Source of the DNA: Alphaproteobacteria bacterium
GTDB lineage: Bacteria > Pseudomonadota > Alphaproteobacteria > MPNO01
Direction: 5' to 3'
Assembly: GCA_965202905.1 (NCBI GenBank)
Contig: OZ241868.1
Span: 900,879-964,878 of the forward strand
DNA: 64,000 nt
A program made the translations under genes and the position numbers. The notes beneath the pieces were generated by a model. The model made no database searches. It was not told the DNA's origin and saw only the letters and a program-made list of their open reading frames with translations. Every line of letters begins with the position of its first letter. The stretch's first letter is position 1. This document shows, piece after piece, positions 32,159-43,813 of the stretch.

Positions 32159-32248
32159 GGATGGGTGGCCGAGCGGTTGAAGGCGCCGGTCTTGAAAACC
32201 GGCAGGCGCGCAAGCGTCTCGTGGGTTCGAATCCCACCCCATCCGCCA
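32159..32248 (+). tRNA. tRNA-Ser (anticodon UGA)
   Basis: 90-nt class II tRNA with a long variable arm. Anticodon loop CTTGAAA, GGTTCGAATCC T-loop, CCA end. Confidence 0.85.
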
Positions 32249-32271: not shown

Positions 32272-32305
32272 AAGGCTCCTGATTGGGGCCTTTTTCTTTT
32301 TGTTT
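32272..32305 (+). terminator. Rho-independent terminator after tRNA-Ser
   Basis: AAGGCTCC-TGATT-GGGGCCTT hairpin followed by TTTTTCTTTTTGTTT. Confidence 0.6.
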
Positions 32306-32654
32306 CAAAGGCGTTTAGCAGAGGCGCCCGAACCTCCGAGACTGGCGCAGCACCGCATTTCGGCCTCTGAACCGCTTTCGTCTCAAACTGGGCGAACCTC
32401 GCCCGGCCCGGTTCGGCTTCGTGAAGTTCAAATTTTTCAACGGGTTTCGCAGGTTGCTCAACGGCGCATTCAGCAGGCATCCTTCCGGTTGGCGTGGCCG
32501 CCCAGAGAACGCGCAGCAGGCATATTCCAGGGAATGCGCGCGTAGCCCGTCGTTATGCTGGCGACTTGGGCAAGCCGCCGATCGTCCGGTCCGCCTGTCG
32601 TAGCCCCGAGCACAACCGCGCCGACGGCGGCGTAACCCGTCTTTCGTCAAGGAG

Positions 32655-33182
32655 ATGGGCACGTCCTACGGGGAGTTCCTGACCCCCGCCAAGGCGAAGA
32701 TCGCCGCCGGCGCGCCGCGCCACGCCATGACGGACCCCGAGCTCGTATCCGTCTATGCCTACACCACCTCTGACACCAGGTGGGGATACAGCCCCCTCAA
32801 CGAGGCGCTGCGTTCGGGCGACGAAGCGCGGATCGCAAACGTGGAAAACTACCGCGACACCCTCAACGCGGCGCTCGCCAGGCTGCCCGACCAACCCGGC
32901 ACGGTGAAGCGTGGAGCCATGCTTCCGGAGTCGGTCCTGGAGCGATATTCGGTCGGCGCCGTCGTCACCGAGGATGCCTTCACCAGCACTTCCACCGGCC
33001 CGGGGTTCTCAGGACCCCATCGGTTCCTTATATATTCCAGGCACGGGAAGCGGATCGAACCCTATTCGGCTCACCCCAGTGAGCACGAGGTGCTGTTCGC
33101 TGCGGGAACAAGGTTCGAGGTCTATGAGATCAAGCCCGGCGATGGCGGACAAGTGACCATATATATGGAAGAGATCGAGTGA
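32655..33182 (+). CDS. Stand-alone ADP-ribosyltransferase-fold toxin domain protein (C3/SpvB-like R-S-E class)
   Basis: 175 aa. AGGAG RBS 7 nt upstream. An in-frame stop at 32601 excludes a longer N-terminus. Motifs: VYAYTTSDTRWGYSPLNEALRSG (YxYT ... Y..LN..LR helix), Arg in VKRGAM, STS in DAFTSTSTG, ExE in SEHEVLF. The spacing is similar to SpvB/C3 catalytic residues. Confidence 0.6.
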   Translation: MGTSYGEFLTPAKAKIAAGAPRHAMTDPELVSVYAYTTSDTRWGYSPLNEALRSGDEARIANVENYRDTLNAALARLPDQPGTVKRGAMLPESVLERYSVGAVVTEDAFTSTSTGPGFSGPHRFLIYSRHGKRIEPYSAHPSEHEVLFAAGTRFEVYEIKPGDGGQVTIYMEEIE

Positions 33183-33460
33183 TGCCGACGATGGCGAATT
33201 TGACACCAGAGCAGAAGCGCAGACTGGAGGAGTTGAGGCGGGTGGCCAAGGAGGCCGAGAACCTGCCGCCGCCGTCGGCCGAGTTCCAGGCCAAGATGGA
33301 CGACCAAGCCCTCACCAACTACATCCTCTCTCAACCCGGACCCGCGCGGGACGCCTATCTCAAGATCACCACCATGCCCCGCGACCAGTTCGAGGCCGAG
33401 TTCGCCGACGTCCTCAACGCCAACGCCTACGACGAGGACGAGGACGCCGCCGACGGCTGA
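33182..33460 (+). CDS. Small acidic protein, putative immunity/antitoxin for the upstream ART toxin
   Basis: The start (GTG 33179 or ATG 33182) overlaps the toxin stop codon. 92 aa with an acidic C-terminus (YDEDEDAADG). No recognisable enzymatic motif. Confidence 0.45.
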   Translation: MPTMANLTPEQKRRLEELRRVAKEAENLPPPSAEFQAKMDDQALTNYILSQPGPARDAYLKITTMPRDQFEAEFADVLNANAYDEDEDAADG

Positions 33461-33641
33461 TCCGCACGGCTCGATTTTCCCCGCCGGAACCACCCCTCCG
33501 AACGCCCCGGATTTACCGCCGTTTCAGCACCCCTGAAACGCCCCGAAATTCCCCCTGCAAGCCCGGATTCGCAAAGACTTTCCGCCGCCCCTCCCCCTCC
33601 CCCGCTCGAAGCATCTGGACGGCGCCGCCCTCGACATTGCC

Positions 33642-34052
33642 ATGGCGAACCACGACCCAGTCGCCTTCGAGGCGGCCGCGCGCGAAGTCGGGTTCCCTGG
33701 TTTCGGCTTCTACCCGCGCTCGGGTTTCATGCATGTCGACCTTGGTCCCGCGCGCCAGTGGGGCGAGCGCTTTCCGGTCCGGGAGACGGCATTTGCAGCC
33801 GAGACGCCGCCCGCGCGCGAAGTGCTGGCCGACAACCGCACCATGAAGAGCGGCGGAGCGGCCGGCTTCGCGACGCTGGGTGCTGCGGGCGCCGAAGTCG
33901 CGCGGAGCGTCCTGGCCGAGACGCAGACAACCATCCTGCCGCTCGTCCCGTATCTCGACACGCTGCGCCGGGTGTTCATCGCCGTGGCGCTTGGCGGGAT
34001 CACGGTCACGCTCTGTGCCCGGCTCGGCGATTGGAAGCAGAGGCGGCGATGA
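33642..34052 (+). pseudogene. Peptidase M15 / DUF882 (YcbK/MepK-like) family C-terminal fragment
   Basis: SKHLDGAALDIA ... GFGFYPRSGFMHVDLGPARQW matches the zinc-binding H-x6-D and SGFVHVD motifs of the DUF882/M15 family. Homology continues upstream of the ATG to a stop at 33534. The N-terminal roughly 120 aa are missing. Confidence 0.45.
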
Positions 34053-34217
34053 TTGGCGCGCTCTTCACGGCGTTCGCCGCCAGCCCGTGGATGCGGGCGG
34101 CGCTGCGCTACGGCGGCCCATCGTGCTCGCGGCGTTCCTGTTTCTGCTTCGCACTTCGGCGCTCCGGTGAGCGCGCCGGACGACTGGCGGAACGCCTCGA
34201 AAGCACGGAGAAGGTCA

Positions 34218-34667
34218 ATGATGTCCAACGCCAGATGCTGGGCGCTACGGCTCGCCGTCCTCGCGATCGCGACGACCTCGCTAACCGGCTGCACGACGGG
34301 CGTTTCTAAGCCGCGCATTGCCATCGTCTGCCTGCCCCTGGTCGAGTACAGTCGGGAGTTTCAGGCGCGCGCGGCCGAGGATCTCGCGCAGCTGCCGGAA
34401 GGGTCTGCCATTGCCGAAATGCTCGCCGACTACAGCGTCATGCGGGATCGGCTCGGGTGTGTCGGTGATGTTGCTGCTTGCACAAGAGGATTCTCACGCC
34501 ATTCTTTGTTCGAGCCGGTGCTTGCGCTTAGGCCAATCGGGCAGGACGCGATCCAACAGTTCAAAAAAATCTGGTCCGTGGTGCGGCACCGCGATGTGGC
34601 AGAGCTCGTGCGTGATGACGTAGTCAATCGCGTCCATGGGCGCCTCGATCAGACGGCGATTGAGTAG
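34218..34667 (+). CDS. Hypothetical lipoprotein (uncertain)
   Basis: MMSNARCWALRLAVLAIATTSLTGC signal peptide plus lipobox. The 3' 170 bp overlap the YgjP-like gene antisense, so this may be a spurious GC-rich ORF. Confidence 0.3.
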   Translation: MMSNARCWALRLAVLAIATTSLTGCTTGVSKPRIAIVCLPLVEYSREFQARAAEDLAQLPEGSAIAEMLADYSVMRDRLGCVGDVAACTRGFSRHSLFEPVLALRPIGQDAIQQFKKIWSVVRHRDVAELVRDDVVNRVHGRLDQTAIE

Positions 34668-35210
34668 AAGACGCGATGCCGGCGACATCGAACCCCACCG
34701 CTGCCGAAATTGGCGCACGATCAAACCCTTGGGGCGGAAGTCGTCAGGCACCGGGAAGCGCAGAAGGTTGACTTCCAGGCGCTCGGCGAATTTCGCATGT
34801 GCCCGCTGTCGATACCAAGCCTCGACGAGCTCGCGCGTGACCTCGGACCTCTCCGGCCTATGAGTTTGGACGACGATGAAGCCACGGACGAGCTTCACCG
34901 TCGCCTGGACGTGGGGCACTACCTTCAACCGATACTGGCGTCCGAGATAAAGATGGGTCTCGCCCGCCACATATTGGCGATCCGGGGTGCGCGGAAGGAA
35001 CTGGATGAAATAGCGCTGCTGACGCCGGATCCAGGCTGCGCGCTTGCACACCTTCTCCTCGATTGCCGCCAGCGGAGCATCCTGCGGGGCGGCGATGACA
35101 ACGGAAGCATCAGGCTCGACAGCGATTTCCAGTGTCGTCCGTTCACGGCGCACAATGGCGAAGTCGATCCTGTGTTCACCGTACTGGACGCTGTGTCGTT
35201 CGGTCTTCAT
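34494..35210 (-). CDS. YgjP-like M48-family metallohydrolase (DUF45)
   Basis: VQYGEHRIDFAIVRRERTTLEIAV N-terminus and a C-terminal HELCH zinc motif (ITHELCHIAVPHHG). This family is commonly adjacent to type I R-M hsdR genes. Confidence 0.7.
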   Translation of the reverse strand: MKTERHSVQYGEHRIDFAIVRRERTTLEIAVEPDASVVIAAPQDAPLAAIEEKVCKRAAWIRRQQRYFIQFLPRTPDRQYVAGETHLYLGRQYRLKVVPHVQATVKLVRGFIVVQTHRPERSEVTRELVEAWYRQRAHAKFAERLEVNLLRFPVPDDFRPKGLIVRQFRQRWGSMSPASRLLLNRRLIEAPMDAIDYVITHELCHIAVPHHGPDFFELLDRVLPDWPKRKHRLEQRMA

Positions 35211-38200
35211 CCCGGAAACCGCGCCCGCGCAAGGTCCATGATCTTGAGCTCAAGGTCGTCCATCACCTCTACTGGCAATGCGATGCCACGTTCATCGCGA
35301 AGGATGTCGAAGAAATAGTCGTCGATAGCGTCGCGCATCTTGTTCTGAGCGATGTCGTTGGACCAGACATCGACGATGTGATGGGACTTGATGACGTCGA
35401 TGATCGTGAGCCCGATGGACGCGACTTCATCCGCCTCAATGGGTTCGCCGTCATCGGTCGCGAGTAAGCCTTCAAGGATCCCAAAAAACGCCTGCCCATC
35501 GTCGTTGCCTCTGATCGCATCCGGCACCTCGCGACCCCGGTCCTTGCGCGCGACCTTGCTCGCCAGATCGACAACGTTCTTGAGGTAGTCCCGTTCGGAG
35601 ATCCGTTTGGCTCGGTAGTCGCGGATGGTCTCCTCCAGCAACTCGGAGAACTTCCGGTAGAAGGTCGGGTCCTCCTCCATCTTTTCGGTGATAGTCCGCC
35701 GTGTCGCGCTGGCGATCCGGTCCGCCCTTGACGCCTCGGAGACGCCCGTTTCCTCCACCACGGCTTTCAGCGCGTCCGGGTCGTTGATGTTGACCATCTC
35801 GATGATCGTCTCGGTCGGCATGGCAACCACATGGTCGTCGAGCAGCTTCTGAATCTTCGGCTCGAACTCCTTGACGTCGATGGTCTCCTGGTAGCGCAGC
35901 TGGACCGAGCGCCGCAGTTCCGAAAACTGCTTCCAGTCCCGCTTCATGGCATCGATCTTCGACTCGTCGAAGACGCCGAAGAGCTTGTCCGACGATAGCG
36001 AAATATGTAGGCAGCGGCTGAACGCCTTCAGCCGTTCATAGAATTCCTGCCGGATCGCCTCGTCGGCCAGGAACTGCTCGAACTGCTCCATATCCTTCTT
36101 GTTCTTGACCGGCTTGAACAGGTCCCAGAGCTGATCGTGCAACTGGGGCAGCCTCCGGATTTCCTCGCGCATGTCGTGGACCGTGTCGGCGAGATCGTCG
36201 GCATCAAAGCCCTCAAAGGCGCTATAGGTCGTCAGCGCCGTGTCCAGTTCTCCGAGCAGCCCCTCATAGTCGATGATGAAGCCGAACTGCTTCTCGGTTG
36301 CGCCGTCTTCGTAGAGCCGGTTCACGCGGGCGATTGCCTGCAGCAGGTTATGTTCGCGCAGCGACTTGCAGACATAGAGCACGGTATTGCGCGGCGCATC
36401 GAAACCGGTCAGCAGCTTCGAGACGACGATGAGGACTTCCGGATCGCCGGACCCTTTGAACGCCTCGATGATCTGCCGTGTGTATTCGTCCTCGGTCTTG
36501 TACCTGGCCATCATCTGCGCCCAGAACCCACGCACGAGGTCCTTCGATTCCTTGTCAACCTCCTCGTTGCCCTCGTTGTCATCGGGAGGAGAGATGACGA
36601 TTTCGCTGGTGACGTGCCCGATCTCGTCGAGCACTTCCTTGAAGCGGACGGCTGCTGCCTTGGACGGCGCCACGAGTTGGGCCTTGAACCCAGTGCCCTG
36701 CCAGTGCTGGCGAAAATGCTCCGAGATGTCGAAGGCTTTCGCCCGGATTGCCTGCCCCGTTTTCGACAGGGCGTCCATGCGCGAGAACTTGCGCTTCAGG
36801 TCGGACTTCTGGCTATCGGTCAGGCCTTCGCTGATCTTGTCGAACCACTTGTCGATCACGCCGCCATTGACCTGCTGCTCGACGAGGCGGCCCTCATAGA
36901 GGAGCGGCACGACGGCTCCATCAGCAACAGCCTCGTCAATCGCGTATTTGTGGACCAAGCCGCCGAAGGTCGAGAGCGTATTCTTCTCCTTCTTCAGGAG
37001 CGGCGTTCCGGTGAAGCCGAGATAGCAGGCCTTCGGCAGCAGCCGGCGCATCCGCGTAGCGAACTGGCTGTGACCGCCATAGCGGCCGGTCTGCGAGCGA
37101 TGGCTTTCATCGACCAGGACGAACACGTTGGCGTCCTCGTCGACATCTTCGGCGGCTTTGGCTGCCGTATCGAACTTGTTGATGATGGTCGTCACGAGCG
37201 GTGTCCGGTTGCGGATCAGCTCGATCAGATGGGCCCCGCTAGTCGCCCGCACGGGTTCCAGTTCGCAGGACTTGAACGTGTCCTTGATCTGCTTGTCGAG
37301 ATCGTCGCGGTCGGTGACGATAAGGATGCGCGGATTGGGAATGGCCTTGTCGAGCGCAAGGGATCGACCCAACATCACCATGGTCAGGGACTTGCCCGAC
37401 CCTTGAGTGTGCCAGATTACACCGCCCTTGCGCCGGCCGTCGAGGTTGAACTGGCGGACACGCTCGACAGCCTTGCGGATCCCAAAGAACTGCTGGTGGC
37501 GCGCGACCTTGCGGGCGCCGCCATCGAACACTGTGAAACGACGGATCAGATCCAGTAGGCGTTCCGGCCGACACAGCGCATGAATAGCGCGGTCCTGCGC
37601 GGTGATCGCGCGCGGCCCCTCGGCTGCAAGCGCCTCGAAATGGTCACGCGCGAAGGCGAAGTCGCCCGAGAAGACCGCATCAGCCTCAGCCCCCGTGAGA
37701 GGCCGATTGGCTAGGGGATCGATGTACTCGTCCCGGTCTTCCTCATCCCACCACATTTGCCAGAACTGCCGCGGTGTGCCCACGGTGGCGTACCGCGCCT
37801 CGACTCGGTTCATGACCATGAGAATCTGCGCGAAGTGGAATAGCTGCGGGATGTTGTCTTCGTTCTGATAGCCGATCAGCTGGCTACCAGCCTTCTTCAG
37901 GCTCTCGGTCGGCCGCTTGTTCTCGATCACCAGAAACGGGATGCCGTTCACATAGGCGACAATATCGCACCGCTTGGTTTGGGTGCTGGCCGTGCGCTCG
38001 ACGGAAAGCTCGGCCGTCACGTGATAGACGTTGTTCGCTGGCGTCTCCCAATCGATGTAGCGGAACGAATAGGACTTGGAGTCCCCCTGGATCGTCTTGG
38101 TGATAGTCGTGCCAAGGACGAGAGTGTCGTAGATGTCCTGGTTGGTGCCGCGCAGGCCCTTTTGCCGGTCGGGCGTGGGCTTCAGTCGGCGAATAGCCTC

Positions 38201-38422
38201 ATGCGCATCCTCGAGGTCGAAGGGATAGTCCCGCCCCCGATGGGTAAAGCTGTTGATCTTCAAGAGATGGTCGGCAAGGATGTCGTCGAGCACCACGTTG
38301 CGCAGACGGCCACCGCGCAGACGCACTGCCTCGGCCTGGGACAGCGGCGTGAACCCCAGCGCCACCAACAGCTGCAGGGCGGGGATCTGGGACTGATGTT
38401 TCTCGGCGGCGTCGAAGGTCAT
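35207..38422 (-). CDS. hsdR: Type I restriction enzyme R subunit
   Basis: N-terminal nuclease region (CDIVAYVNGIPFLVIENKRP), SF2 helicase motifs (HTQGSGKSLTM, DESHRS, FTGTP), C-terminal HsdR domain. Start at MTFDAAEK (ATG 38422) overlaps the upstream stop (ATGA). Confidence 0.9.
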   Translation of the reverse strand: MTFDAAEKHQSQIPALQLLVALGFTPLSQAEAVRLRGGRLRNVVLDDILADHLLKINSFTHRGRDYPFDLEDAHEAIRRLKPTPDRQKGLRGTNQDIYDTLVLGTTITKTIQGDSKSYSFRYIDWETPANNVYHVTAELSVERTASTQTKRCDIVAYVNGIPFLVIENKRPTESLKKAGSQLIGYQNEDNIPQLFHFAQILMVMNRVEARYATVGTPRQFWQMWWDEEDRDEYIDPLANRPLTGAEADAVFSGDFAFARDHFEALAAEGPRAITAQDRAIHALCRPERLLDLIRRFTVFDGGARKVARHQQFFGIRKAVERVRQFNLDGRRKGGVIWHTQGSGKSLTMVMLGRSLALDKAIPNPRILIVTDRDDLDKQIKDTFKSCELEPVRATSGAHLIELIRNRTPLVTTIINKFDTAAKAAEDVDEDANVFVLVDESHRSQTGRYGGHSQFATRMRRLLPKACYLGFTGTPLLKKEKNTLSTFGGLVHKYAIDEAVADGAVVPLLYEGRLVEQQVNGGVIDKWFDKISEGLTDSQKSDLKRKFSRMDALSKTGQAIRAKAFDISEHFRQHWQGTGFKAQLVAPSKAAAVRFKEVLDEIGHVTSEIVISPPDDNEGNEEVDKESKDLVRGFWAQMMARYKTEDEYTRQIIEAFKGSGDPEVLIVVSKLLTGFDAPRNTVLYVCKSLREHNLLQAIARVNRLYEDGATEKQFGFIIDYEGLLGELDTALTTYSAFEGFDADDLADTVHDMREEIRRLPQLHDQLWDLFKPVKNKKDMEQFEQFLADEAIRQEFYERLKAFSRCLHISLSSDKLFGVFDESKIDAMKRDWKQFSELRRSVQLRYQETIDVKEFEPKIQKLLDDHVVAMPTETIIEMVNINDPDALKAVVEETGVSEASRADRIASATRRTITEKMEEDPTFYRKFSELLEETIRDYRAKRISERDYLKNVVDLASKVARKDRGREVPDAIRGNDDGQAFFGILEGLLATDDGEPIEADEVASIGLTIIDVIKSHHIVDVWSNDIAQNKMRDAIDDYFFDILRDERGIALPVEVMDDLELKIMDLARARFPG

Positions 38423-39267
38423 TGCGTACCCTCCGAAAACAGCCCGGAGAGTGATGCCCGCGCGGCGACGACATTGATGTTGGCTTTGATAATGCGATCG
38501 AGGTCGCTGCCATCCGTGTAGATGGCGGGTGCAACGCAATGGACCCTGCCATCATTGATGTAGTTGTCGGCCTTATCGCGCGCGCCCTTGGTGTGGGGCT
38601 TGAAGACGGCCACCGAAAGCCCGCCCTGTTCCTTGACGAGTCGAAAGCACGGGATATCGGTCGGGCCGTCGCCGATGAACACCATGTTCTCGAAGGGCAC
38701 GGGCCGGTCACGCTTCTCGACGAACTGGTTGATCTTGCTGTTGTCGCTCAGGTCGAGAGCGCCCTTGTTGATGCGGAACAGATATTGCGTCTTGGTCGTG
38801 TAGTTCACGGCGAGCGCCGGCCAGGTGGCGACGCCGTTCGGGTCGAAGATGAACCTCGACGCATAGACCTGGGCGAACTTGGAAGCGATCGGCGTGCCGG
38901 CGAAGATCTCGGCATTCCCCGACGAGACGAGGTAATGTTGAACGCGGACACCCCGCACCTTGCCATAGCCGGTGATGCGGTCGAACCACTCTTCGACCCC
39001 ATCAAAAAGCTGGATGGTCTTGCCCCGTGCTTTGAAATCGTCCCGCCGCACCGGAACTTTGGCCGCGGCCGCCTTGCTCAGCATCAGGTTCATGTAGACA
39101 AGCACTTCGTCCGCCTTATGCTCCTTGGTCAGGTGCTTTACCTCGGCCCAGAACTCCTTCGGTTTCATGCCGATGTCGGGCAGGAACTGGTGTTCCGGCA
39201 TGTTGCCGTTCGCCAACGTGCCGTCGAAGTCGTAGGCGATCGCCATTTCGATGTATTTCTTAGCCAT
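38419..39267 (-). CDS. HAD-superfamily phosphatase-like protein embedded in the type I R-M operon
   Basis: HAD motif I DFDGTL, motif II SSG, motif IV GDGPTD. RBS (GGAGAG) 12 nt after the hsdS stop. Its stop overlaps the hsdR start. Confidence 0.6.
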   Translation of the reverse strand: MAKKYIEMAIAYDFDGTLANGNMPEHQFLPDIGMKPKEFWAEVKHLTKEHKADEVLVYMNLMLSKAAAAKVPVRRDDFKARGKTIQLFDGVEEWFDRITGYGKVRGVRVQHYLVSSGNAEIFAGTPIASKFAQVYASRFIFDPNGVATWPALAVNYTTKTQYLFRINKGALDLSDNSKINQFVEKRDRPVPFENMVFIGDGPTDIPCFRLVKEQGGLSVAVFKPHTKGARDKADNYINDGRVHCVAPAIYTDGSDLDRIIKANINVVAARASLSGLFSEGTQ

Positions 39268-39279
39268 ACGATCTCTCCT

Positions 39280-40539
39280 TCAGACGGCGACGCGCCATTC
39301 GCCCGTCAGCAGCTTCTGCATCAGGCCGCGTTTCTGGCGGGTGAACAGGTCGATCTCCGCTTCGATGGCGGCGAGTTCGGCCCACGATACTTCCACCACC
39401 TCGGCGATGGCGGATTGCTCGGCTGGATCCATCGGCAGGTGCAATTTGCCTTCGAGGAAGCGGCGATTGGTGATTGCGATGGTGTTCTTTGCGCCCTTTT
39501 GCACAAGCGGGTGCAGGTAGTTGCGCACCGCGACGGGGGACTCGAACAGGGCATCGAGGATCACGCCGAGCGCGCGGGTCGCCGGGGCGAATACACCGTA
39601 GAGCGGCGAGACGATTACCTCTTGCGAAATCTTGCTCTGCTTGATGATGCCTAGCGGGAAATCTCCGGTCGGGCTCTTGGTGTAGACGATATCGCCGGGC
39701 AGAACGCGGTTGTAGTGACCGGTTTCGGCAGCAGCGAAGGATCGTCCAAGGTGCTCGATCTGATTGACCATGCCTTTGTGGACCGAGACAGAGAACACTT
39801 CCTCTGCACCGGTCCCTTGCAGCCTGTGTTCGGTAAGCATCTCGCCCAGAGCCACATCGCGCCATTCATCCGTCTGACCGGGTAGCCGTGTGCGCCCTGT
39901 GAACAGATGAGTGCGCATCCAGATGCGGCGCCGAAGGTTTGCCGCCCGCAGCGTCTCCAGCTTCTCGATGGCCTCGTCCCATGTCCACAGGATATCGGCG
40001 ATCTTGCGTTGTTCGGGGAGTGGTGGAAGCGGGAGCGGACAGTGCTTGCGGAACTCCGTCGGATTAATGTTCGCTTGGCTCACCCCGCGAGTTGAAAGGC
40101 GCTTCAGTGCCGTTTGGGCGATGGCGGTATTTAGCCAGTAGTTCACATATTCTGGATCGGCTTTCTCGCGATCAACGTCGAGCCTGACGAGATAGGACGC
40201 GAATACAGCTTGAGAGTCTTCTCTGACTATTCCCGCCTTGCCAACGAGGTCAGCACTGTTGGTTCGATTGAGAAGTATATCTCCACGCCGAAGTTGCATA
40301 CCTGTCCAATCAGCTCCGCCGTCATCGACAGTAGCTAGGCCGATCAGATTTACAGATCCGTTGTTGAGATCGCGCATCCCGACTATGGGCGTGTTACCGG
40401 TGGAATCGCCGGGCTCGCTTAGACCATATTGCGTGCCCAGCAGAGCGTTTCCAACGGACACGAGGCGCCAGTCATCGGGCAACTCGCTATCGAAAAGAGA
40501 GCGGGTAAAGGCAGATTGATGGTTCTTTCGCTTAAGCAT
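39280..40539 (-). CDS. hsdS: Type I restriction-modification specificity subunit (two target-recognition domains)
   Basis: Conserved HsdS repeats (LPLPPLPEQRKIADIL ... central coiled coil ... second TRD ... QKRGLMQKLLTGEWRV). Start at MLKRKN (ATG 40539). Confidence 0.85.
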   Translation of the reverse strand: MLKRKNHQSAFTRSLFDSELPDDWRLVSVGNALLGTQYGLSEPGDSTGNTPIVGMRDLNNGSVNLIGLATVDDGGADWTGMQLRRGDILLNRTNSADLVGKAGIVREDSQAVFASYLVRLDVDREKADPEYVNYWLNTAIAQTALKRLSTRGVSQANINPTEFRKHCPLPLPPLPEQRKIADILWTWDEAIEKLETLRAANLRRRIWMRTHLFTGRTRLPGQTDEWRDVALGEMLTEHRLQGTGAEEVFSVSVHKGMVNQIEHLGRSFAAAETGHYNRVLPGDIVYTKSPTGDFPLGIIKQSKISQEVIVSPLYGVFAPATRALGVILDALFESPVAVRNYLHPLVQKGAKNTIAITNRRFLEGKLHLPMDPAEQSAIAEVVEVSWAELAAIEAEIDLFTRQKRGLMQKLLTGEWRVAV

Positions 40540-41548
40540 CGTTGCGCCCCTTCTTCCGCCCCTTGGCGACCTTCTCCATCTTCTCCAGCCGGGCGATGTC
40601 ATCCGCGTCCGCCGCCAGCGCCTCGGCGGCACGGCGGTTGGCGTCGAATGCCTCAAGTCGCTCGATGGCCAGCTTCTGGGCTATGTCCATCCGCAACCGC
40701 CCGGCATGGGTCAGCACGTCACGTTCGTTAAAGGAGAGGAAGGCGTCGAGTTTGTCGGCCCATTCGGCCATGGTAACCGGCCGACGGCGCTTCGCCTGAT
40801 CCTCCGCATAGTCGAGGTACATCACGACGATGCGGTTGAGCTCCTCGACCTCTTCGGCCTTGAGATAGTTTTTGGCGGTGCCGACATCGCCCTTGCGCAC
40901 GACCGAGCCTTTCCAGCTGGTCAGGCCCATATTGGGTGCTCTGGGGTTGCTGCGGCTTTCGATCAGCTCGGCAGCCGTCTTGCCCGTGACCGCCCAGAGC
41001 ATCTTGTTCTGCACCTTCTTAAAGAACGCCTGCGCCTGTTCGGACGTCTTGTCGTAGTCGATGGCGGTCGTGTAGAGGTCGCGCACCTTCTGGTAGAAGC
41101 GCTTCTCCGAAGCGCGGATGTCCCGGATGCGGGCAAGCCATTCGTCGAAATAGTCCCATTGCTCGGCTTGGCTAAGCCGGGCATCGTCCATGGCGAAACC
41201 CTTGACTAGGTATTCGCGCAGGACGGTTGTGGCCCAGCGGCGGAACTGGGTGCCGCGCGCCGAGCGAACCCGGTATCCGACCGCCAGAATGGCGTCCAGA
41301 TTGTAGACCTTCGTGCGGTAGGCCTTGCCGTCCGAGGCAGTTGTCAAGGATTCCTTGACAACTGCCTCGGCCGTCAGCTCCCCCTCTGACAGGATGTTGT
41401 TGATGTGCAGGCTGACGTTTTGCTTGGAGGTGTCGAACAGCTCGGCCATCTCCAGCTGGGTCAGCCAGACCGTGCCATCGATGGCGCGCAGGCCGATGGT
41501 CGCTGCGCCATCGTCGGTGTTGTAGAGGATCAGTTCGCCTTCAGACAC
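40532..41548 (-). CDS. rhuM: RhuM-family virulence/defence-associated protein
   Basis: LEMAELFDTSKQNVSLHINNILSEGEL ... VGYRVRSARGTQFRRWATTVLREYLVKGF ... RIRDIRASEKRFYQKVRDLYTTAIDYD ... MYLDYAEDQAKRR matches the RhuM family nearly motif for motif. Typical position between hsdM and hsdS. Confidence 0.8.
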   Translation of the reverse strand: MSEGELILYNTDDGAATIGLRAIDGTVWLTQLEMAELFDTSKQNVSLHINNILSEGELTAEAVVKESLTTASDGKAYRTKVYNLDAILAVGYRVRSARGTQFRRWATTVLREYLVKGFAMDDARLSQAEQWDYFDEWLARIRDIRASEKRFYQKVRDLYTTAIDYDKTSEQAQAFFKKVQNKMLWAVTGKTAAELIESRSNPRAPNMGLTSWKGSVVRKGDVGTAKNYLKAEEVEELNRIVVMYLDYAEDQAKRRRPVTMAEWADKLDAFLSFNERDVLTHAGRLRMDIAQKLAIERLEAFDANRRAAEALAADADDIARLEKMEKVAKGRKKGRNDA

Positions 41549-43058
41549 CGACGCCCAGCTCCTTCAGATAGCCAGCCATGCGCCCGCGCACCTCAGCCAA
41601 CTCGATCTCGATCGTGTTGATCTGCTTCTGCAGGGCGGCGACGTCGATTTCCTCCTCCGGCTCGAAGGTGTCGACGTAGCGGGGGATGTTGAGGTTGAAG
41701 TCGTTCTCGGCGATCTCCTCCGGGCTGGCGCGGTGCGCGTATTTCTCGATCTCCGCCCGCGAGGCATAGGTTTCCAGCACCTTGGTGATATGCGCCTCGT
41801 CCATCACGTTCTGGGTCTTGCCCGGCGTGAACTCCTTGCTGGCGTCAATGAACAGGATGTCGCGCCGATCCTCATTTGCGCCGCCCTGTTCACGGGAGCG
41901 GTCGAAGACCAGAATAGCCACCGGAATGCCCGTGGTCGTGAACAGGTTGGCGGGCAGCCCCACCACCGCGTCGAGCAGGTTTTCTTCGATCAGCGCTTGC
42001 CGAATCCGCCCCTCGGCTCCGCCCCGGAACAACACGCCATGCGGAACGATGACGGCCGCCCGGCCGCTCTGGCGCTTGGCGATCTCGATCATGTGGGTGA
42101 TGAAGCCGTAGTCGCCCTTGGACTTCGGCGGGATGCCACGCCAGTAGCGCTTGAACTGGTCGGTGTCCGCGTTTTCCGCCCCCCATTTGTCGAGGCTGAA
42201 CGGAGGATTCGCCACCACCACGTCGAACTTCATCAGGTGATCGCCCTCGACCAGAGCGGGGCTGTTGAGCGTGTCGCACCACTCGATGCGCGCGGCGTCC
42301 TTGGCGTGGAGAAACATGTTCATCCGCGCCAGCGCCCATGTCGCGCCGTTCACTTCCTGGCCATAAAGGGCGAAGTTCTCGGACCCGACTTCCTCGGCCG
42401 CCCGGATCAACAGCGAGCCGGACCCGCAGGCCGGGTCGCAGATCGTATCACCCGGCTTGGGTGCCGCCAGTTTCGCCAGCAGGCGGGAGACGGCGGAGGG
42501 CGTGTAGAACTCGCCGGCCTTCTTGCCCGCATCGGACGCAAACCGCGAGATCAGATAGATGTAGCATTCGCCGATGATGTCCTCGGTCACCCGCGAAGGG
42601 CGCAGGTCGAGCGCGGGCTTGGCGAAATCTTCCAGCACGTTCTTGAGGCGACGATTGCGGTCCTTGACGCGCCCGAGATTGGCCTCGGAGTTGAAGTCGA
42701 TGTTGCGGAACACCCCTGCGAGCTTGGCGCGGTTGGTATCTTCGATCCGCTCCAGCGCGATATTGATCCGCTCACCGATATCGGGCACGTTCCGCGCTTC
42801 ATAAAGATCGTAGAAGCTGGCGCCTTCATGGAGGACGAAACGCTCGCGCTCCAGCCTGCGGCGGATCCGGGTTTCGTCCCTGCCATACTGCTTGCGGTAA
42901 GTTTCGAGGTGATCGTTCCAGTGGTCAGAGATGTACTTCAGAAACAGCATCACAAGGATGTAGTCCTTGTACTGTCCGGCATCGACGACGCCCCGAAAAG
43001 TGTCGCAAGCGGCCCAGGCCGTCTGGTTGACCTGTTGCTGGGTGAGTTGGTCGGTCAT
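41541..43058 (-). CDS. hsdM: Type I restriction-modification DNA methyltransferase subunit
   Basis: N-terminal HsdM_N, SAM motif DPACGSGSLL, catalytic NPPF (VVANPPFS), C-terminal helical domain. Confidence 0.9.
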   Translation of the reverse strand: MTDQLTQQQVNQTAWAACDTFRGVVDAGQYKDYILVMLFLKYISDHWNDHLETYRKQYGRDETRIRRRLERERFVLHEGASFYDLYEARNVPDIGERINIALERIEDTNRAKLAGVFRNIDFNSEANLGRVKDRNRRLKNVLEDFAKPALDLRPSRVTEDIIGECYIYLISRFASDAGKKAGEFYTPSAVSRLLAKLAAPKPGDTICDPACGSGSLLIRAAEEVGSENFALYGQEVNGATWALARMNMFLHAKDAARIEWCDTLNSPALVEGDHLMKFDVVVANPPFSLDKWGAENADTDQFKRYWRGIPPKSKGDYGFITHMIEIAKRQSGRAAVIVPHGVLFRGGAEGRIRQALIEENLLDAVVGLPANLFTTTGIPVAILVFDRSREQGGANEDRRDILFIDASKEFTPGKTQNVMDEAHITKVLETYASRAEIEKYAHRASPEEIAENDFNLNIPRYVDTFEPEEEIDVAALQKQINTIEIELAEVRGRMAGYLKELGVGV

Positions 43059-43660
43059 TTGGACGTCCTTTCCTGCCTCGTCTTGGGACGCATCCTGCTC
43101 GCTTGCTCGACGAGGATCAGGCTCATCATCTTTCTTCGTATCTCGGCGGCGAGTTGAGACAGCTCCCGCTCCCGCTCGGCCAGCGCATCGACCGCGACTA
43201 TTCTTCTCTGTGTCTCGATGTCTGGGACATCGAGTTCGAGGTCATCAAGGCTGGATCGGGGGATCATCCGGATGTTCGTGCCACATGCCGCGACATCGAA
43301 GTGGCGCTGCGCCGGGGGCTGGTTGATCGCCCATGCTAGATACTCGGGCGTCACGACATCACGGTTCGGACGCAGCACCATCAGAGGGAGCACTGCAAGG
43401 GCGGGCTCCTGCAGACGCTCGTCCAGAGCGGAGGCCGTGTTGCGCTCACCCCGCGAGCGGAACACCACATCGCCGGCGCGAACGAAATAGCGGTCCGCCA
43501 AGTCTCCCAGCTGGACGCGGGTGAGGCGCTCCGGATCGAAGAGGCCGTCGGGGGAAATGTCCCGCAACTGGATTGCGAGCATACCCCCGACGGTCGTCGG
43601 CTCCAGTCTGCCGCGAGCGGTATAGCCGGTATGGATGGCACAGGCGTCAGCGAGGCGCAT
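43055..43660 (-). CDS. Single-TRD (half) HsdS-like specificity protein
   Basis: About 200 aa, with one target-recognition domain plus a conserved C-terminal coiled-coil region (RRIVAVDALAERERELSQLAAEIRRK). Overlaps the hsdM start. Start placed at MRLADAC (ATG 43660). Confidence 0.6.
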   Translation of the reverse strand: MRLADACAIHTGYTARGRLEPTTVGGMLAIQLRDISPDGLFDPERLTRVQLGDLADRYFVRAGDVVFRSRGERNTASALDERLQEPALAVLPLMVLRPNRDVVTPEYLAWAINQPPAQRHFDVAACGTNIRMIPRSSLDDLELDVPDIETQRRIVAVDALAERERELSQLAAEIRRKMMSLILVEQASRMRPKTRQERTSK

Positions 43661-43666
43661 CGAAAT

Positions 43667-43692
43667 TTCTCTGTAACTCTCTCTACAGAGAA
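43667..43692. promoter_or_regulatory. Perfect 9-bp inverted repeat (TTCTCTGTA-N8-TACAGAGAA) 7 nt upstream of the half-hsdS start
   Basis: Directly visible palindrome in the leader of the half-hsdS/hsdM operon. Candidate operator or RBS-occluding hairpin. Confidence 0.4.
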
Positions 43693-43813
43693 TAAGCGCG
43701 CGCAAGCCTGCTGTCAATGCTGAAAAGCGGCGCAAGCCCGCGCCGACGGACGCCGACCGAACGTCCGAGCGCTTCCGCGGCGCCCGACATGCGTAATCGC
43801 GGTTGGAGCGCGG

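Follow-up and report, generated by a model that had tools for sequence, protein, structure and literature searches.

A HAD-superfamily phosphatase gene as exchangeable PDC-S34 cargo, and candidate second defence layer, of a type I restriction-modification cassette

The 282-aa HAD-superfamily phosphatase gene located on the minus strand between hsdS and hsdR of a type I restriction-modification (R-M) operon (38419–39267 in the window, i.e., the whole 64,000-nt stretch of alphaproteobacterial DNA that was analyzed) is very probably an exchangeable cargo gene of the PDC-S34 family, not an R-M subunit. The gene has a clear anatomy and family membership, sits in a slot whose contents are exchanged among related cassettes, and accompanies R-M genes of types I, III, and IIG, being found by itself too. 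The overall explanation that we favor, with a probability of roughly 0.45, is that this mobile PDC-S34 cargo supplies a predicted nucleotide phosphatase as a second defence layer.

The operon comprises seven genes, all on the minus strand (i.e., half-size hsdS, hsdM, RhuM, hsdS, HAD, hsdR, and YgjP). Its first gene encodes a half-size HsdS-like protein with a single target-recognition domain (43055–43660; PADLOC Specificity_I profile PDLC03199, E = 3e-21), shares 4 nt with the start of hsdM, and is kept upstream of hsdM in related loci. Its start at 43660 was derived from a 606-nt plasmid homologue (labeled "restriction endonuclease subunit S" in RefSeq), while the longest ORF reaches 43735. 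The hsdM gene (41541–43058) encodes the N6-adenine DNA methyltransferase subunit (PF02384, E = 4.5e-100; PF12161; TIGR00497 at 288.8 bits for a cut-off of 242.75). Embedded between hsdM and hsdS, with an 8-nt overlap with each neighbor, lies a RhuM-family gene (40532–41548; PF13310, E = 8e-107) that matches PADLOC candidate PDC-S05 (E = 9e-145) and is found in some related cassettes only. For the hsdS specificity gene (39280–40539; PADLOC Specificity_I, E = 8.4e-53; PF01420), the ATG of MLKRKNHQ... was taken as start, in line with the 8-nt overlap pattern of RefSeq plasmid homologues. Beyond the HAD gene, hsdR (35207–38422; TIGR00348, E = 1.3e-135; PF18766, PF04313, and PF22679) encodes the 1071-aa restriction/translocase subunit, and its end overlaps by 4 nt with the last gene of the cassette, which encodes a YgjP/SprT-like zinc metallopeptidase (34494–35210; PF01863, E = 1.6e-51) and comes after hsdR in almost every related cassette. 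The G+C content of the cassette in the window is 0.58–0.62 (vs. 0.66–0.72), and the cassette-bearing stretch begins beside a tRNA-Ser gene; the borders of this island were searched for direct repeats of the att type, and none was found.

The HAD ORF, for which the initial annotation gave no strand and which lies on the minus strand, is real and intact as described there, with its neighbors set by the Specificity_I and TIGR00348 matches. At the hsdS–HAD junction the minus strand reads TGA (the hsdS stop codon)-AGGAGAGATCGT-ATG, leaving a gap of 12 nt (39268–39279) that by direct reading of the sequence carries the HAD Shine-Dalgarno element. While the annotated ribosome binding site is thus present in this gap, its placement 12 nt after the stop was slightly off, since the AGGAG motif begins right at the hsdS stop codon, 7 nt before the HAD ATG. 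At the other end, the HAD stop codon overlaps the hsdR start codon as ATGA (38419–38422), just as described before, and a GGAGG motif is situated inside the HAD 3′ end, 7 nt upstream of the hsdR start. This hsdR start is supported by HsdR tblastn alignments in many related loci, whose first aligned residue is residue 1 and lies right where HAD ends. With this layout, the HAD gene would be co-transcribed and co-translated with the R-M genes, probably with neither side requiring the other.

The hsdS–HAD–hsdR arrangement recurs in ca. 21 of 80 genome loci, in 17 of 77 metagenome loci, and on three plasmids, and is therefore not a chance layout. The metagenomic sample consisted of 77 cassettes whose HsdR is 78–97% identical and whose upstream sequence is long enough to score the slot between hsdS and hsdR. 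With 17 occurrences, the HAD gene is not present whenever the cassette is, and the slot is empty in five cassettes, where hsdS abuts hsdR at 6–12 nt. Counted as gene clusters, the other slot contents are Shedu (12), KwaA plus KwaB (Kiwa; 5–6), a PD-T4-6-like kinase (8), DUF2188 (PDC-S16) plus DUF4917 (PDC-S21) (10), DUF3800 types (11, 5, and 4), and DUF6119 (5); mixed contents such as Shedu plus HAD are seen as well. The earlier view of the gene as an integral member of the operon rather than a passenger thus stands as far as co-orientation and translational coupling are concerned, but not as to indispensability, given the empty slots and the other cargo elsewhere; HAD is, as noted there, no standard R-M subunit.

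The 4-nt overlap with hsdR is found in all 12 metagenome loci in which HAD is the last cargo gene. However, the ATGA coupling to hsdR is also seen with the kinase, with one DUF3800 cargo, and with two short unannotated ORFs (52 and 63–65 aa), and is therefore a property of the slot, not of HAD. Two small ORFs overlapping hsdR (S9 and S11) were considered as relics of a HAD C-terminus and rejected, as they show no similarity to it. Since HAD variants of 46–52% and of 76–89% identity share the same slot in cassettes whose HsdR is 79–84% identical, repeated capture of HAD genes is indicated. The gene is very probably a self-contained, horizontally mobile PDC-S34 cargo in a recombination-prone "defence slot" of a widespread type I R-M cassette. 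The anatomical result is the firmer one, i.e., a widespread R-M cassette with a defined hsdS–hsdR slot in which defence genes are swapped while the coupling to hsdR is kept.

These data also bear on the possibility that HAD is an accessory to R-M, either dephosphorylating N6-methyl-dAMP from methylated DNA (so that this nucleotide is not re-used and does not trigger m6dAMP-sensing suicide) or modulating HsdR. HAD nucleotidases clearing modified nucleotides exist, such as cN-IIIB for m7GMP, and the HAD protein shows a fold match to cN-IIIB. The gene moreover follows R-M enzymes of type I, of type III, and of the Eco57I-like kind, all of which have adenine-methyltransferase-type domains in common (N6_Mtase, N6_N4_Mtase, and Eco57I), and its translational coupling to hsdR is tight. 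A precedent is the HAD protein MisB, which clears basal m6dAMP in the Metis system (10.1101/2025.11.05.686725). Nevertheless, cassettes with HsdR 93–97% identical lack HAD or carry other cargo, unrelated cargo is coupled to hsdR in the same way, and many loci retain HAD while having no R-M gene; the HAD protein furthermore belongs to PF12710 where MisB belongs to PF13419, and its operon has no MisA or PUA-Cal partner. An accessory role as a whole is therefore quite improbable, and modulation of HsdR in particular, as proposed by the initial annotation, appears unlikely from the comparative data.

As to family, the HAD protein matches the PADLOC profile PDLC05002 of PDC-S34 over nearly its whole length (E = 5.3e-120, 398 bits; residues 4–275 vs. 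profile positions 3–274 of 284), with PDLC05000 and PDLC05001 matching too. PDC families were defined by "guilt-by-embedding" in type I R-M, BREX, and DISARM loci (Payne et al. 2024, 10.1101/2024.01.29.577857), and the HAD gene is embedded in just this manner, i.e., on the same strand between hsdS and hsdR with the short gap and overlap described above. It shares with PDC-S34 the single-gene format, the size of ca. 280 aa, the nesting in a type I R-M operon, and the full-length HMM match, and no structural difference from the family was seen. The suggestion of a novel system accordingly did not hold up, because the family is already present as PDC-S34 in PADLOC-DB v2, stemming from the same study (bioRxiv 10.1101/2024.01.29.577857). 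The gene adds one more example of a PADLOC candidate that is already catalogued and whose anti-phage activity is only predicted. No experimental test of PDC-S34 was found in the literature, and the name itself was found neither there nor in those parts of the supplementary tables of Payne et al. that were accessible, where Table S8, as far as available, gives the PDC naming scheme only. What is added to PDC-S34 here is its interchange in the slot with Shedu, Kiwa, the kinase, DUF4917, DUF3800, and DUF6119, and its presence after type III and IIG R-M genes and in non-defence contexts.

Co-expressed, independent genes nested among hsd genes are known from the PrrC anticodon nuclease, Shedu, Kiwa, and RhuM/PDC-S05, of which Shedu and Kiwa sit in the very same hsdS–hsdR slot of sister cassettes, and PrrC is nested, with few exceptions, in type I R-M loci (Payne et al. 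2024, 10.1101/2024.01.29.577857). In contrast to HAD, none of these is a phosphatase, as they are nucleases, membrane sensors, or proteins without an assigned function. PrrC is moreover regulated by the R-M complex, while no evidence of such regulation was seen for HAD.

Beyond the cassette, the PDC-S34 family is spread over many phyla. A collection holding one genome per species contained at least 571 matching stretches, and family representatives numbered 472 at E ≤ 1e-30 and 2,766 at E ≤ 1e-3. The family is also carried by conjugative or mobilizable plasmids, and on plasmids HAD adjoins Shedu as well. The gene lies downstream of type III Mod-Res genes at two loci (L048 and L057) and of an Eco57I-like type IIG enzyme at another (L058), and at two further loci (L011 and L012) it is kept beside an N-terminal remnant of hsdM, with no hsdR found. 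A tblastn search of 50,697 phage records returned a single partial match, in an unannotated 5-kb fragment, so HAD is not a phage gene. The family is not confined to R-M genes, since ca. 50 of the 80 genome loci are without the type I cassette and place HAD near NrdJ, UDG-LigT-AlkA, HTH-M78, or metabolic genes. (Gene calling in the fetched loci was crude, using longest ORFs weighted by GC3, and five loci without a HAD gene call were classified by tblastn only.) Among 117 neighbors scanned, lying up to two genes away in loci without the type I cassette, most were ordinary metabolic or transport genes.

Such contexts would suit a non-defence passenger, i.e., an accessory or housekeeping phosphatase of metabolites or nucleotides (balancing pools or clearing damaged nucleotides) that was swept into an R-M recombination hot spot and confers no phage resistance. 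Homologues are indeed found directly downstream of nrdJ, in a conserved amidohydrolase-UDG-HAD-LigT-HhH-GPD-Ffh synteny in Dehalococcoidia, beside PTS/PfkB genes in Bartonella, and in the company of TctC, permease, and aminotransferase genes, and a more distant homologue (38% identity) from Vescimonas lies among housekeeping genes, amid divIVA, ROK-family, and ppdK genes. That the product is a single-domain enzyme without a sensor, and that PDC status is based on guilt-by-embedding only, points the same way. However, the slot otherwise carries validated defence genes (Shedu, Kiwa, and the PD-T4-6-like kinase) and other PADLOC candidates, divergent HAD variants were repeatedly captured into it, HAD recurs downstream of three R-M types, and high conservation across phyla is combined with a patchy spread on plasmids and islands. 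A mere passenger is thus possible yet somewhat doubtful, and a defence role for the HAD gene, as first proposed, is a reasonable guess.

The HAD motifs reported earlier are indeed intact in the sequence, with motif I (DFDGT) at residues 13–17 (nt 39217–39231), motif II (SSG) at residues 115–117 (nt 38917–38925), and motif IV (GDGPTD) at residues 199–204 (nt 38656–38673). Across 93 homologues of 43–89% identity, D13, D15, T17, S115, G199, D200, G201, and D204 are invariant. Motif I thereby retains its nucleophile and general acid/base aspartates (D13-F-D15-G-T17, with D13, D15, and T17 in 93/93), motif II has S115 in 93/93 and S116 in 91/93 and sits at the end of the predicted strand E107–118, and motif IV retains its Mg2+ ligands (G199-D200-G201-P-T-D204). 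K159, K168, and R188 are invariant as well, and K185 is present in 48/93; since residues 150–180 are modelled with low confidence, the motif III Lys/Arg is not fixed to one residue (K159 or K168). In total, 63 alignment columns are at least 97% identical (including D13, D15, T17, S115, K159, K168, R188, D200, and D204), and the active site is intact and under strong purifying selection. Further invariant residues of aromatic or basic character are F39, W40, Y58, W94, F95, H111, W149, F164, and R165.

Profile placement succeeded at the level of PF12710 (HAD, clan HAD; 36.9 bits for a cut-off of 27, E = 6.5e-9), with PF00702 as the only other Pfam match at E ≤ 0.01. A finer placement was not obtained, as no Pfam match at E ≤ 0.01 to the cytosolic 5′-nucleotidase III (UMPH-1) family was found (the structural-alignment identity being 14%) and the family alignment, run as a profile against PDB sequences, matched neither a HAD enzyme nor a nucleotidase, giving only two spurious matches (haemoglobin and an Argonaute). 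The match to the NCBIfam HAD-IB profile (TIGR01488) spans the whole profile (residues 10–211 vs. positions 2–177 of 177) at 20.9 bits, below its cut-off of 45. The AF2 model (pLDDT 85.7, pTM 0.86) shows a Rossmannoid core with a five-helix cap between motifs I and II. Foldseek returned 99 PDB chains at E ≤ 1e-3, and among the matches listed all were HAD-type enzymes or engineered derivatives; a BFVD search of viral structures gave generic, low-TM HAD matches only. The best solved folds, all distant, were cN-III 2jga (E = 3.6e-10; TM 0.54–0.56), cN-IIIB, and phosphoserine phosphatase 1f5s (TM 0.48/0.61), with 7zeh as a further match. The cN-III and cN-IIIB enzymes (NT5C3A/B) and the HAD-IB-type phosphoserine phosphatase share with HAD the Rossmannoid core and helical C1 cap, cN-III also being of similar length, yet they are only 14–20% identical to it, and none of their families was matched at the sequence level. 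Compared with cN-III and phosphoserine phosphatase, HAD further contains an extra, highly conserved insert at ca. residues 138–190 (WPALAVNYTTKTQYLFRINKG) without a confident structural counterpart, of which residues 149–168 are the most conserved stretch of the protein yet the least confidently modelled.

A C1 cap encloses the HAD active site and favors small substrates, while protein- and polynucleotide-directed HAD enzymes are cap-less. On the basis of the model, the product would be a Mg2+-dependent HAD phosphohydrolase that is catalytically competent and bears a helical C1 cap, an architecture expected to serve small phosphorylated metabolites rather than proteins or nucleic-acid ends. 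End-healing by a PNKP-like DNA/RNA 3′-phosphatase, hinted at by the UDG-HAD-LigT-AlkA neighborhood, was rejected as such enzymes are cap-less and the predicted model has a large C1 cap. The same predicted cap argues against HAD being a protein phosphatase that frees R-M proteins, or further DNA-binding proteins of defence, from phosphates added by phage kinases (such as the T7 kinase), thereby restoring their activity. Some HAD enzymes are protein phosphatases, and the HAD gene lies immediately before hsdR; the T7 kinase, moreover, disarms defences and phosphorylates a broad set of host proteins that bind DNA (PMC13645617). Nevertheless, the closest folds are small-molecule phosphatases, and the cassette can be without HAD, which is also found away from defence genes, making such a counter-counter-defence role very improbable.

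For the favored second defence layer, the most likely role would be an R-M-independent protection via dephosphorylation of a nucleotide-type substrate, with a (deoxy)nucleotide needed by the phage or a modified or damage-derived nucleotide as candidates. The nucleotide lead comes from the NrdJ-(DUF2188)-HAD neighborhoods (in three to four Alphaproteobacteria) and the UDG-HAD-LigT-AlkA neighborhoods (in eight Dehalococcoidia), and from precedents in validated defence systems, whose HAD partners act on deoxyadenine nucleotides. Counting against a nucleotidase is the weakness of the cN-III fold match (TM about 0.54 at 14% identity). We tentatively infer from these data both a nucleotide substrate and an anti-phage effect, although a defence enzyme acting on nucleotides falls somewhat short of an even chance.

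The precedents are MisB of Metis, which converts m6dAMP into m6dA (10.1101/2025.11.05.686725), and a PUA-Cal-HAD protein converting dATP into dADP (10.64898/2026.01.15.699771). In PUA-Calcineurin-CE-HAD (DefensePredictor's DS-9B), the HAD partner is MisB. The two studies give this partner different reactions, with both substrates (m6dAMP or dATP) being deoxyadenine nucleotides tied to adenine methylation. Like the HAD protein described here, MisB is a C1-capped HAD-superfamily phosphatase in an anti-phage locus. In contrast, MisB is a PF13419 (HAD_2) protein by its paper's description (10.1101/2025.11.05.686725) and part of a two-gene effector complex, whereas HAD is a PF12710 protein and stand-alone cargo; none of the seven genes of its operon encodes a calcineurin-like MisA or PUA-Cal partner (i.e., a metallophosphoesterase).

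A point against the favored reading is that the HAD protein is single-domain and has neither a sensor nor a regulatory part by which a constitutive phosphatase might recognize infection. One conceivable but unlikely reading is that PDC-S34 acts as a sensor-less, "substrate-gated" nucleotide phosphatase, whose preferred substrate appears during infection only and whose activity blocks nucleotide recycling or modified-DNA synthesis, thereby specifically backing up adenine-methylating R-M (types I, III, and IIG) against restriction-escaping phages. Candidate substrates would be m6dAMP or other dNMPs set free by phage shredding of the host's methylated DNA, or modified dNMPs specific to the phage, e.g., hydroxymethyl-dCMP. 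Should the defence role prove true, a very small phosphatase of a single domain would confer protection without an obvious sensor, and PDC-S34 would help to settle what HAD enzymes do in immunity, a role that according to DefensePredictor "remains unknown".

Domain fusions among 150 family representatives were scattered (HTH plus HNH, resolvase, DUF5655, and DJ-1/PfpI) and gave no consistent functional hint, and some may be gene-call fusions; some representatives carry an unannotated C-terminal extension of ca. 100–140 aa. Besides the hsdS–hsdR slot, a convenient "expression socket" provided by nature, from which more candidates (e.g., DUF3800, DUF6119, and the DUF2188-linked pairs) could be mined, the cassette has another slot, which is situated between hsdM and hsdS and is occupied by RhuM.

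The 282-aa HAD ORF (38419–39267) lies between hsdS and hsdR of the type I R-M operon, as the initial annotation had placed it and as the ORF listing and the profile matches of its neighbors bear out. The seven cassette genes are all located on the minus strand, in the order of a half-size, single-domain hsdS-like gene (43055–43660; PADLOC Specificity_I, E = 3e-21), hsdM (41541–43058; PF02384, E = 4.5e-100), a RhuM-family gene (40532–41548; PF13310, E = 8e-107; PADLOC PDC-S05, E = 9e-145), hsdS (39280–40539; PADLOC Specificity_I, E = 8e-53), the HAD ORF (PF12710; PADLOC PDC-S34), hsdR (35207–38422; TIGR00348, E = 1e-135), and a YgjP/SprT-like zinc metallopeptidase gene (34494–35210; PF01863, E = 1.6e-51). 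Their junctions are overlaps of 4–8 nt, with as sole exception the 12-nt gap between hsdS and the HAD ORF (minus strand, TGA-AGGAGAGATCGT-ATG), in which the Shine-Dalgarno AGGAG begins directly past the hsdS stop and is separated from the ATG by 7 nt. At its other end, the HAD ORF overlaps hsdR through a stop/start ATGA (38419–38422), with a GGAGG 7 nt upstream. Both the RBS and the stop/start overlap described earlier thus exist, and the description of the locus needs correcting only in strand (i.e., minus) and in the wording of the RBS position, which is at the hsdS stop rather than 12 nt after it. Judging from the sequence, the HAD gene is firmly predicted to be co-expressed with the R-M system.

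The cassette is situated in a stretch (~32300–43800) starting at a tRNA-Ser(TGA) gene (32159–32248, plus strand), with a G+C content of 0.58–0.62 over ~34.5–43.5 kb vs. 0.66–0.72 outside. No integrase or att-like direct repeats were found around this tRNA-Ser-adjacent stretch. The HAD ORF is exchangeable and mobile, its homologues being carried on plasmids and the present copy on this lower-GC island; in a search of phage sequences, homologues were essentially absent.

The hsdS–hsdR interval (the slot) was surveyed in 80 metagenome contigs with HsdR N-termini 78–97% identical to that of the window, 77 of which had enough upstream sequence (loci L085–L164; e.g., L093:4575–5983, L134:2402–3499, L163:4913–5983, L156:2573–4324, and L098:502–1356). 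HAD was present in 17 of these 77 cassettes, and five had an empty slot, with hsdS abutting hsdR at a gap of 6–12 nt. After clustering and annotation of the slot ORFs, the other contents were, as gene-cluster counts, Shedu (12), KwaA and KwaB of Kiwa (5–6), a Ser/Thr kinase with hits to PD-T4-6 and mad6, accompanied by a partner of 165 aa (8), DUF2188 (PDC-S16) with DUF4917 (PDC-S21) (10), three groups of DUF3800 (11, 5, and 4, one being PDC-M04A), and DUF6119 (5), next to mixtures (e.g., Shedu and HAD, HAD and DUF3800, DUF2188 and HAD). DUF6119 and two of the DUF3800 types gave no match in the PADLOC search and are therefore further candidates. Even cassettes with HsdR 96–97% identical to that of the window carried either HAD, Shedu and DUF3800, Kiwa, or DUF4917. 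Moreover, HAD variants of only 46–52% identity are found in the same slot as those of 76–89%, in cassettes with HsdR 79–84% identical, which indicates that HAD has been captured repeatedly.

The ATGA overlap with hsdR was present in all 12 loci having HAD as the last cargo gene. It was likewise seen in 8/8 kinase cases, in four of the 11 loci whose cargo is the most frequent DUF3800 type, and with two short ORFs lacking annotation, which are the final ORF in ten loci. Since this overlap is common to unrelated cargo, translational coupling is a property of the slot and not evidence for HAD as a subunit. The view of the gene as an integral operon member rather than a passenger consequently finds no support, and HAD is very probably an exchangeable PDC-S34 cargo, not an R-M subunit.

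Homologues were also scanned in one genome per species, yielding at least 571 matching stretches in Alpha-, Beta-, Gamma-, and Deltaproteobacteria, Acidobacteria, Chloroflexota, Nitrospirota, Chlorobi, Chlamydiae, and Bacteroidales. Among the contexts of the best 80 loci, the same cassette with an hsdS-HAD-hsdR arrangement recurred in ~21, and four retained cassette remnants only (L009, L011, L012, and L053). HAD further followed type III Mod-Res genes (L048 and L057) or an Eco57I-like type IIG gene (L058), was paired with Shedu (L003, L009, and two plasmids), or had an XRE-HTH/M78 peptidase gene (six loci) or DUF2188 (seven loci) upstream, the latter directly. In the HAD tree, R-M-embedded copies fall in several separate clades, interleaved with other contexts. 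Two Entotheonella genomes carry an intact HAD immediately downstream of an hsdM N-terminal remnant (residues 1–67, ~69% identical; L011:7767–7966 and L012:7766–7966), with hsdS and hsdR absent; HAD seems to have been retained after loss of the R-M genes.

These contexts bear on whether HAD could be an R-M accessory, e.g., clearing m6dAMP or modulating HsdR. All HAD-associated R-M types have adenine-methyltransferase-type domains, and MisB of the validated Metis system dephosphorylates m6dAMP (10.1101/2025.11.05.686725). Nevertheless, such a role is improbable: there are sister cassettes without HAD and HAD copies without R-M genes, the protein belongs to another Pfam family than MisB, and no MisA/PUA-Cal partner is present. 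A non-defence passenger has in its favor the many ordinary neighborhoods of HAD homologues, which include varied metabolic genes; its company in the slot and its repeated capture argue against this, and we consider it unlikely. In Bartonella apis and B. apihabitans (L021 and L028), HAD (65–67% identity) is flanked by PfkB-PTS sugar genes and a histidine-phosphatase gene, with a Cas9 gene 2–3 genes downstream.

Along its whole length, the protein matches PADLOC family PDC-S34 (PDLC05002, E = 5.3e-120; PADLOC-DB v2.0.0), making the locus, by its sequence, a fresh instance of a catalogued candidate. Such 'phage defence candidate' (PDC) families stem from a 'guilt-by-embedding' study, in which genes collected from within type I R-M, BREX, and DISARM loci yielded 145 curated, purely predicted candidates (Payne et al., 10.1101/2024.01.29.577857). 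With defence genes in R-M operons being a known phenomenon, the suggestion of a novel system does not stand; the present analysis contributes an explicit map of the slot as a site where cargo is exchanged, and shows HAD to be associated with R-M genes of three types. Our literature search found no experimental test of PDC-S34, and RefSeq labels the plasmid homologues 'HAD family hydrolase', nothing further.

In the profile search, the protein scored as a PF12710 member (36.9 bits vs. a cut-off of 27), with HAD-IB matched only below threshold in NCBIfam. The motifs DFDGT (residues 13–17), SSG (115–117), and GDGPTD (199–204) are all present, and 63 columns are ≥97% identical among 93 homologues (43–89% identity), including D13, D15, T17, S115, K159, K168, R188, G199, D200, G201, D204, and many aromatic cap residues. 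The protein is hence predicted to be enzymatically active, its pocket being under tight constraint. The AlphaFold2 model (22 input sequences; pLDDT 85.7, pTM 0.86) has a Rossmannoid core with a helical C1 cap between motifs I and II, and a second insert (residues ~138–190), modelled at low confidence, in which conservation within the family peaks (WPALAVNYTTKTQYLFRINKG). Sequence and model together firmly support a predicted HAD phosphohydrolase that is intact, strongly conserved, and C1-capped. C1-capped HADs act on small-molecule substrates, while protein- or polynucleotide-directed HADs are cap-less. This capped architecture disfavors a protein phosphatase countering phage kinases, a role that T7 kinase work (PMC13645617) suggests and that we regard as highly improbable.

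The top Foldseek match in the PDB was cytosolic 5′-nucleotidase III (2jga, E = 3.6e-10, TM 0.54), with cN-IIIB, a Salmonella HAD that is uncharacterised, and phosphoserine phosphatases ranking next. Identity was 14–21% throughout and a PDB sequence-profile search with the family returned no HAD, placing it remote from every structurally characterised HAD. Its likeness to both cN-III and MisB is one of general chemistry and fold, without family membership by sequence.

The nrdJ-(DUF2188)-HAD neighborhood occurs in Alphaproteobacteria. In Dehalococcoidia, HAD (55–59% identity; ~8001–8830 in L041, L043, L045, L046, L054, L059, L062, and L074) belongs to a chromosomal gene block that is conserved (aldehyde dehydrogenase-?-amidohydrolase-UDG-HAD-LigT(2H phosphoesterase)-HhH-GPD glycosylase-Ffh) where the LigT start coincides with the HAD stop, suggesting a role in nucleotide or nucleic-acid damage processing in that lineage. 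Together with the nucleotidase-type fold matches and defence-system precedent, the nrdJ and UDG/LigT/AlkA neighborhoods point to a substrate that may be nucleotide-like. In another validated system, the phosphatase of PUA-Cal-HAD turns dATP into dADP (10.64898/2026.01.15.699771), and the role of the HAD in system DS-9 of DefensePredictor was noted as unknown (PMC13092281). We favor, at a probability of roughly 0.45, a second-layer nucleotide phosphatase independent of R-M, which would add protection beyond R-M by dephosphorylating a nucleotide; defence through nucleotides is as such a tentative component. The main weakness of this favored reading is that the protein carries no sensor domain. 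This difficulty would vanish if the substrate arose in infected cells alone, a novel reading that we consider improbable.

Elsewhere in the operon, the RhuM gene overlaps hsdM and hsdS by 8 nt each, occurs in some sister cassettes but not in others, and is located after HAD instead in L047 and L050–L052; the hsdM–hsdS interval is a second variable slot. The half-hsdS upstream of hsdM and the YgjP/SprT-like gene, which closes the cassette with a 4-nt overlap with the hsdR stop, are kept in nearly all related loci. The DUF2188 protein (72–102 aa; L047:7757–7990, L052, L061, L076, L078, L079, and L136, also L094, L097, and others) lies directly upstream of either HAD or DUF4917, which gives it the look of an adaptor or regulator that is portable and common to unrelated cargo. 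Finally, just past the tRNA-Ser, a 175-aa ADP-ribosyltransferase-like gene (32655–33182, plus strand; PF01129, E = 5.9e-10; PF03496) and a 93-aa acidic ORF matching no family (33179–33460, plus strand) overlap by 4 nt and may form a toxin/immunity pair.
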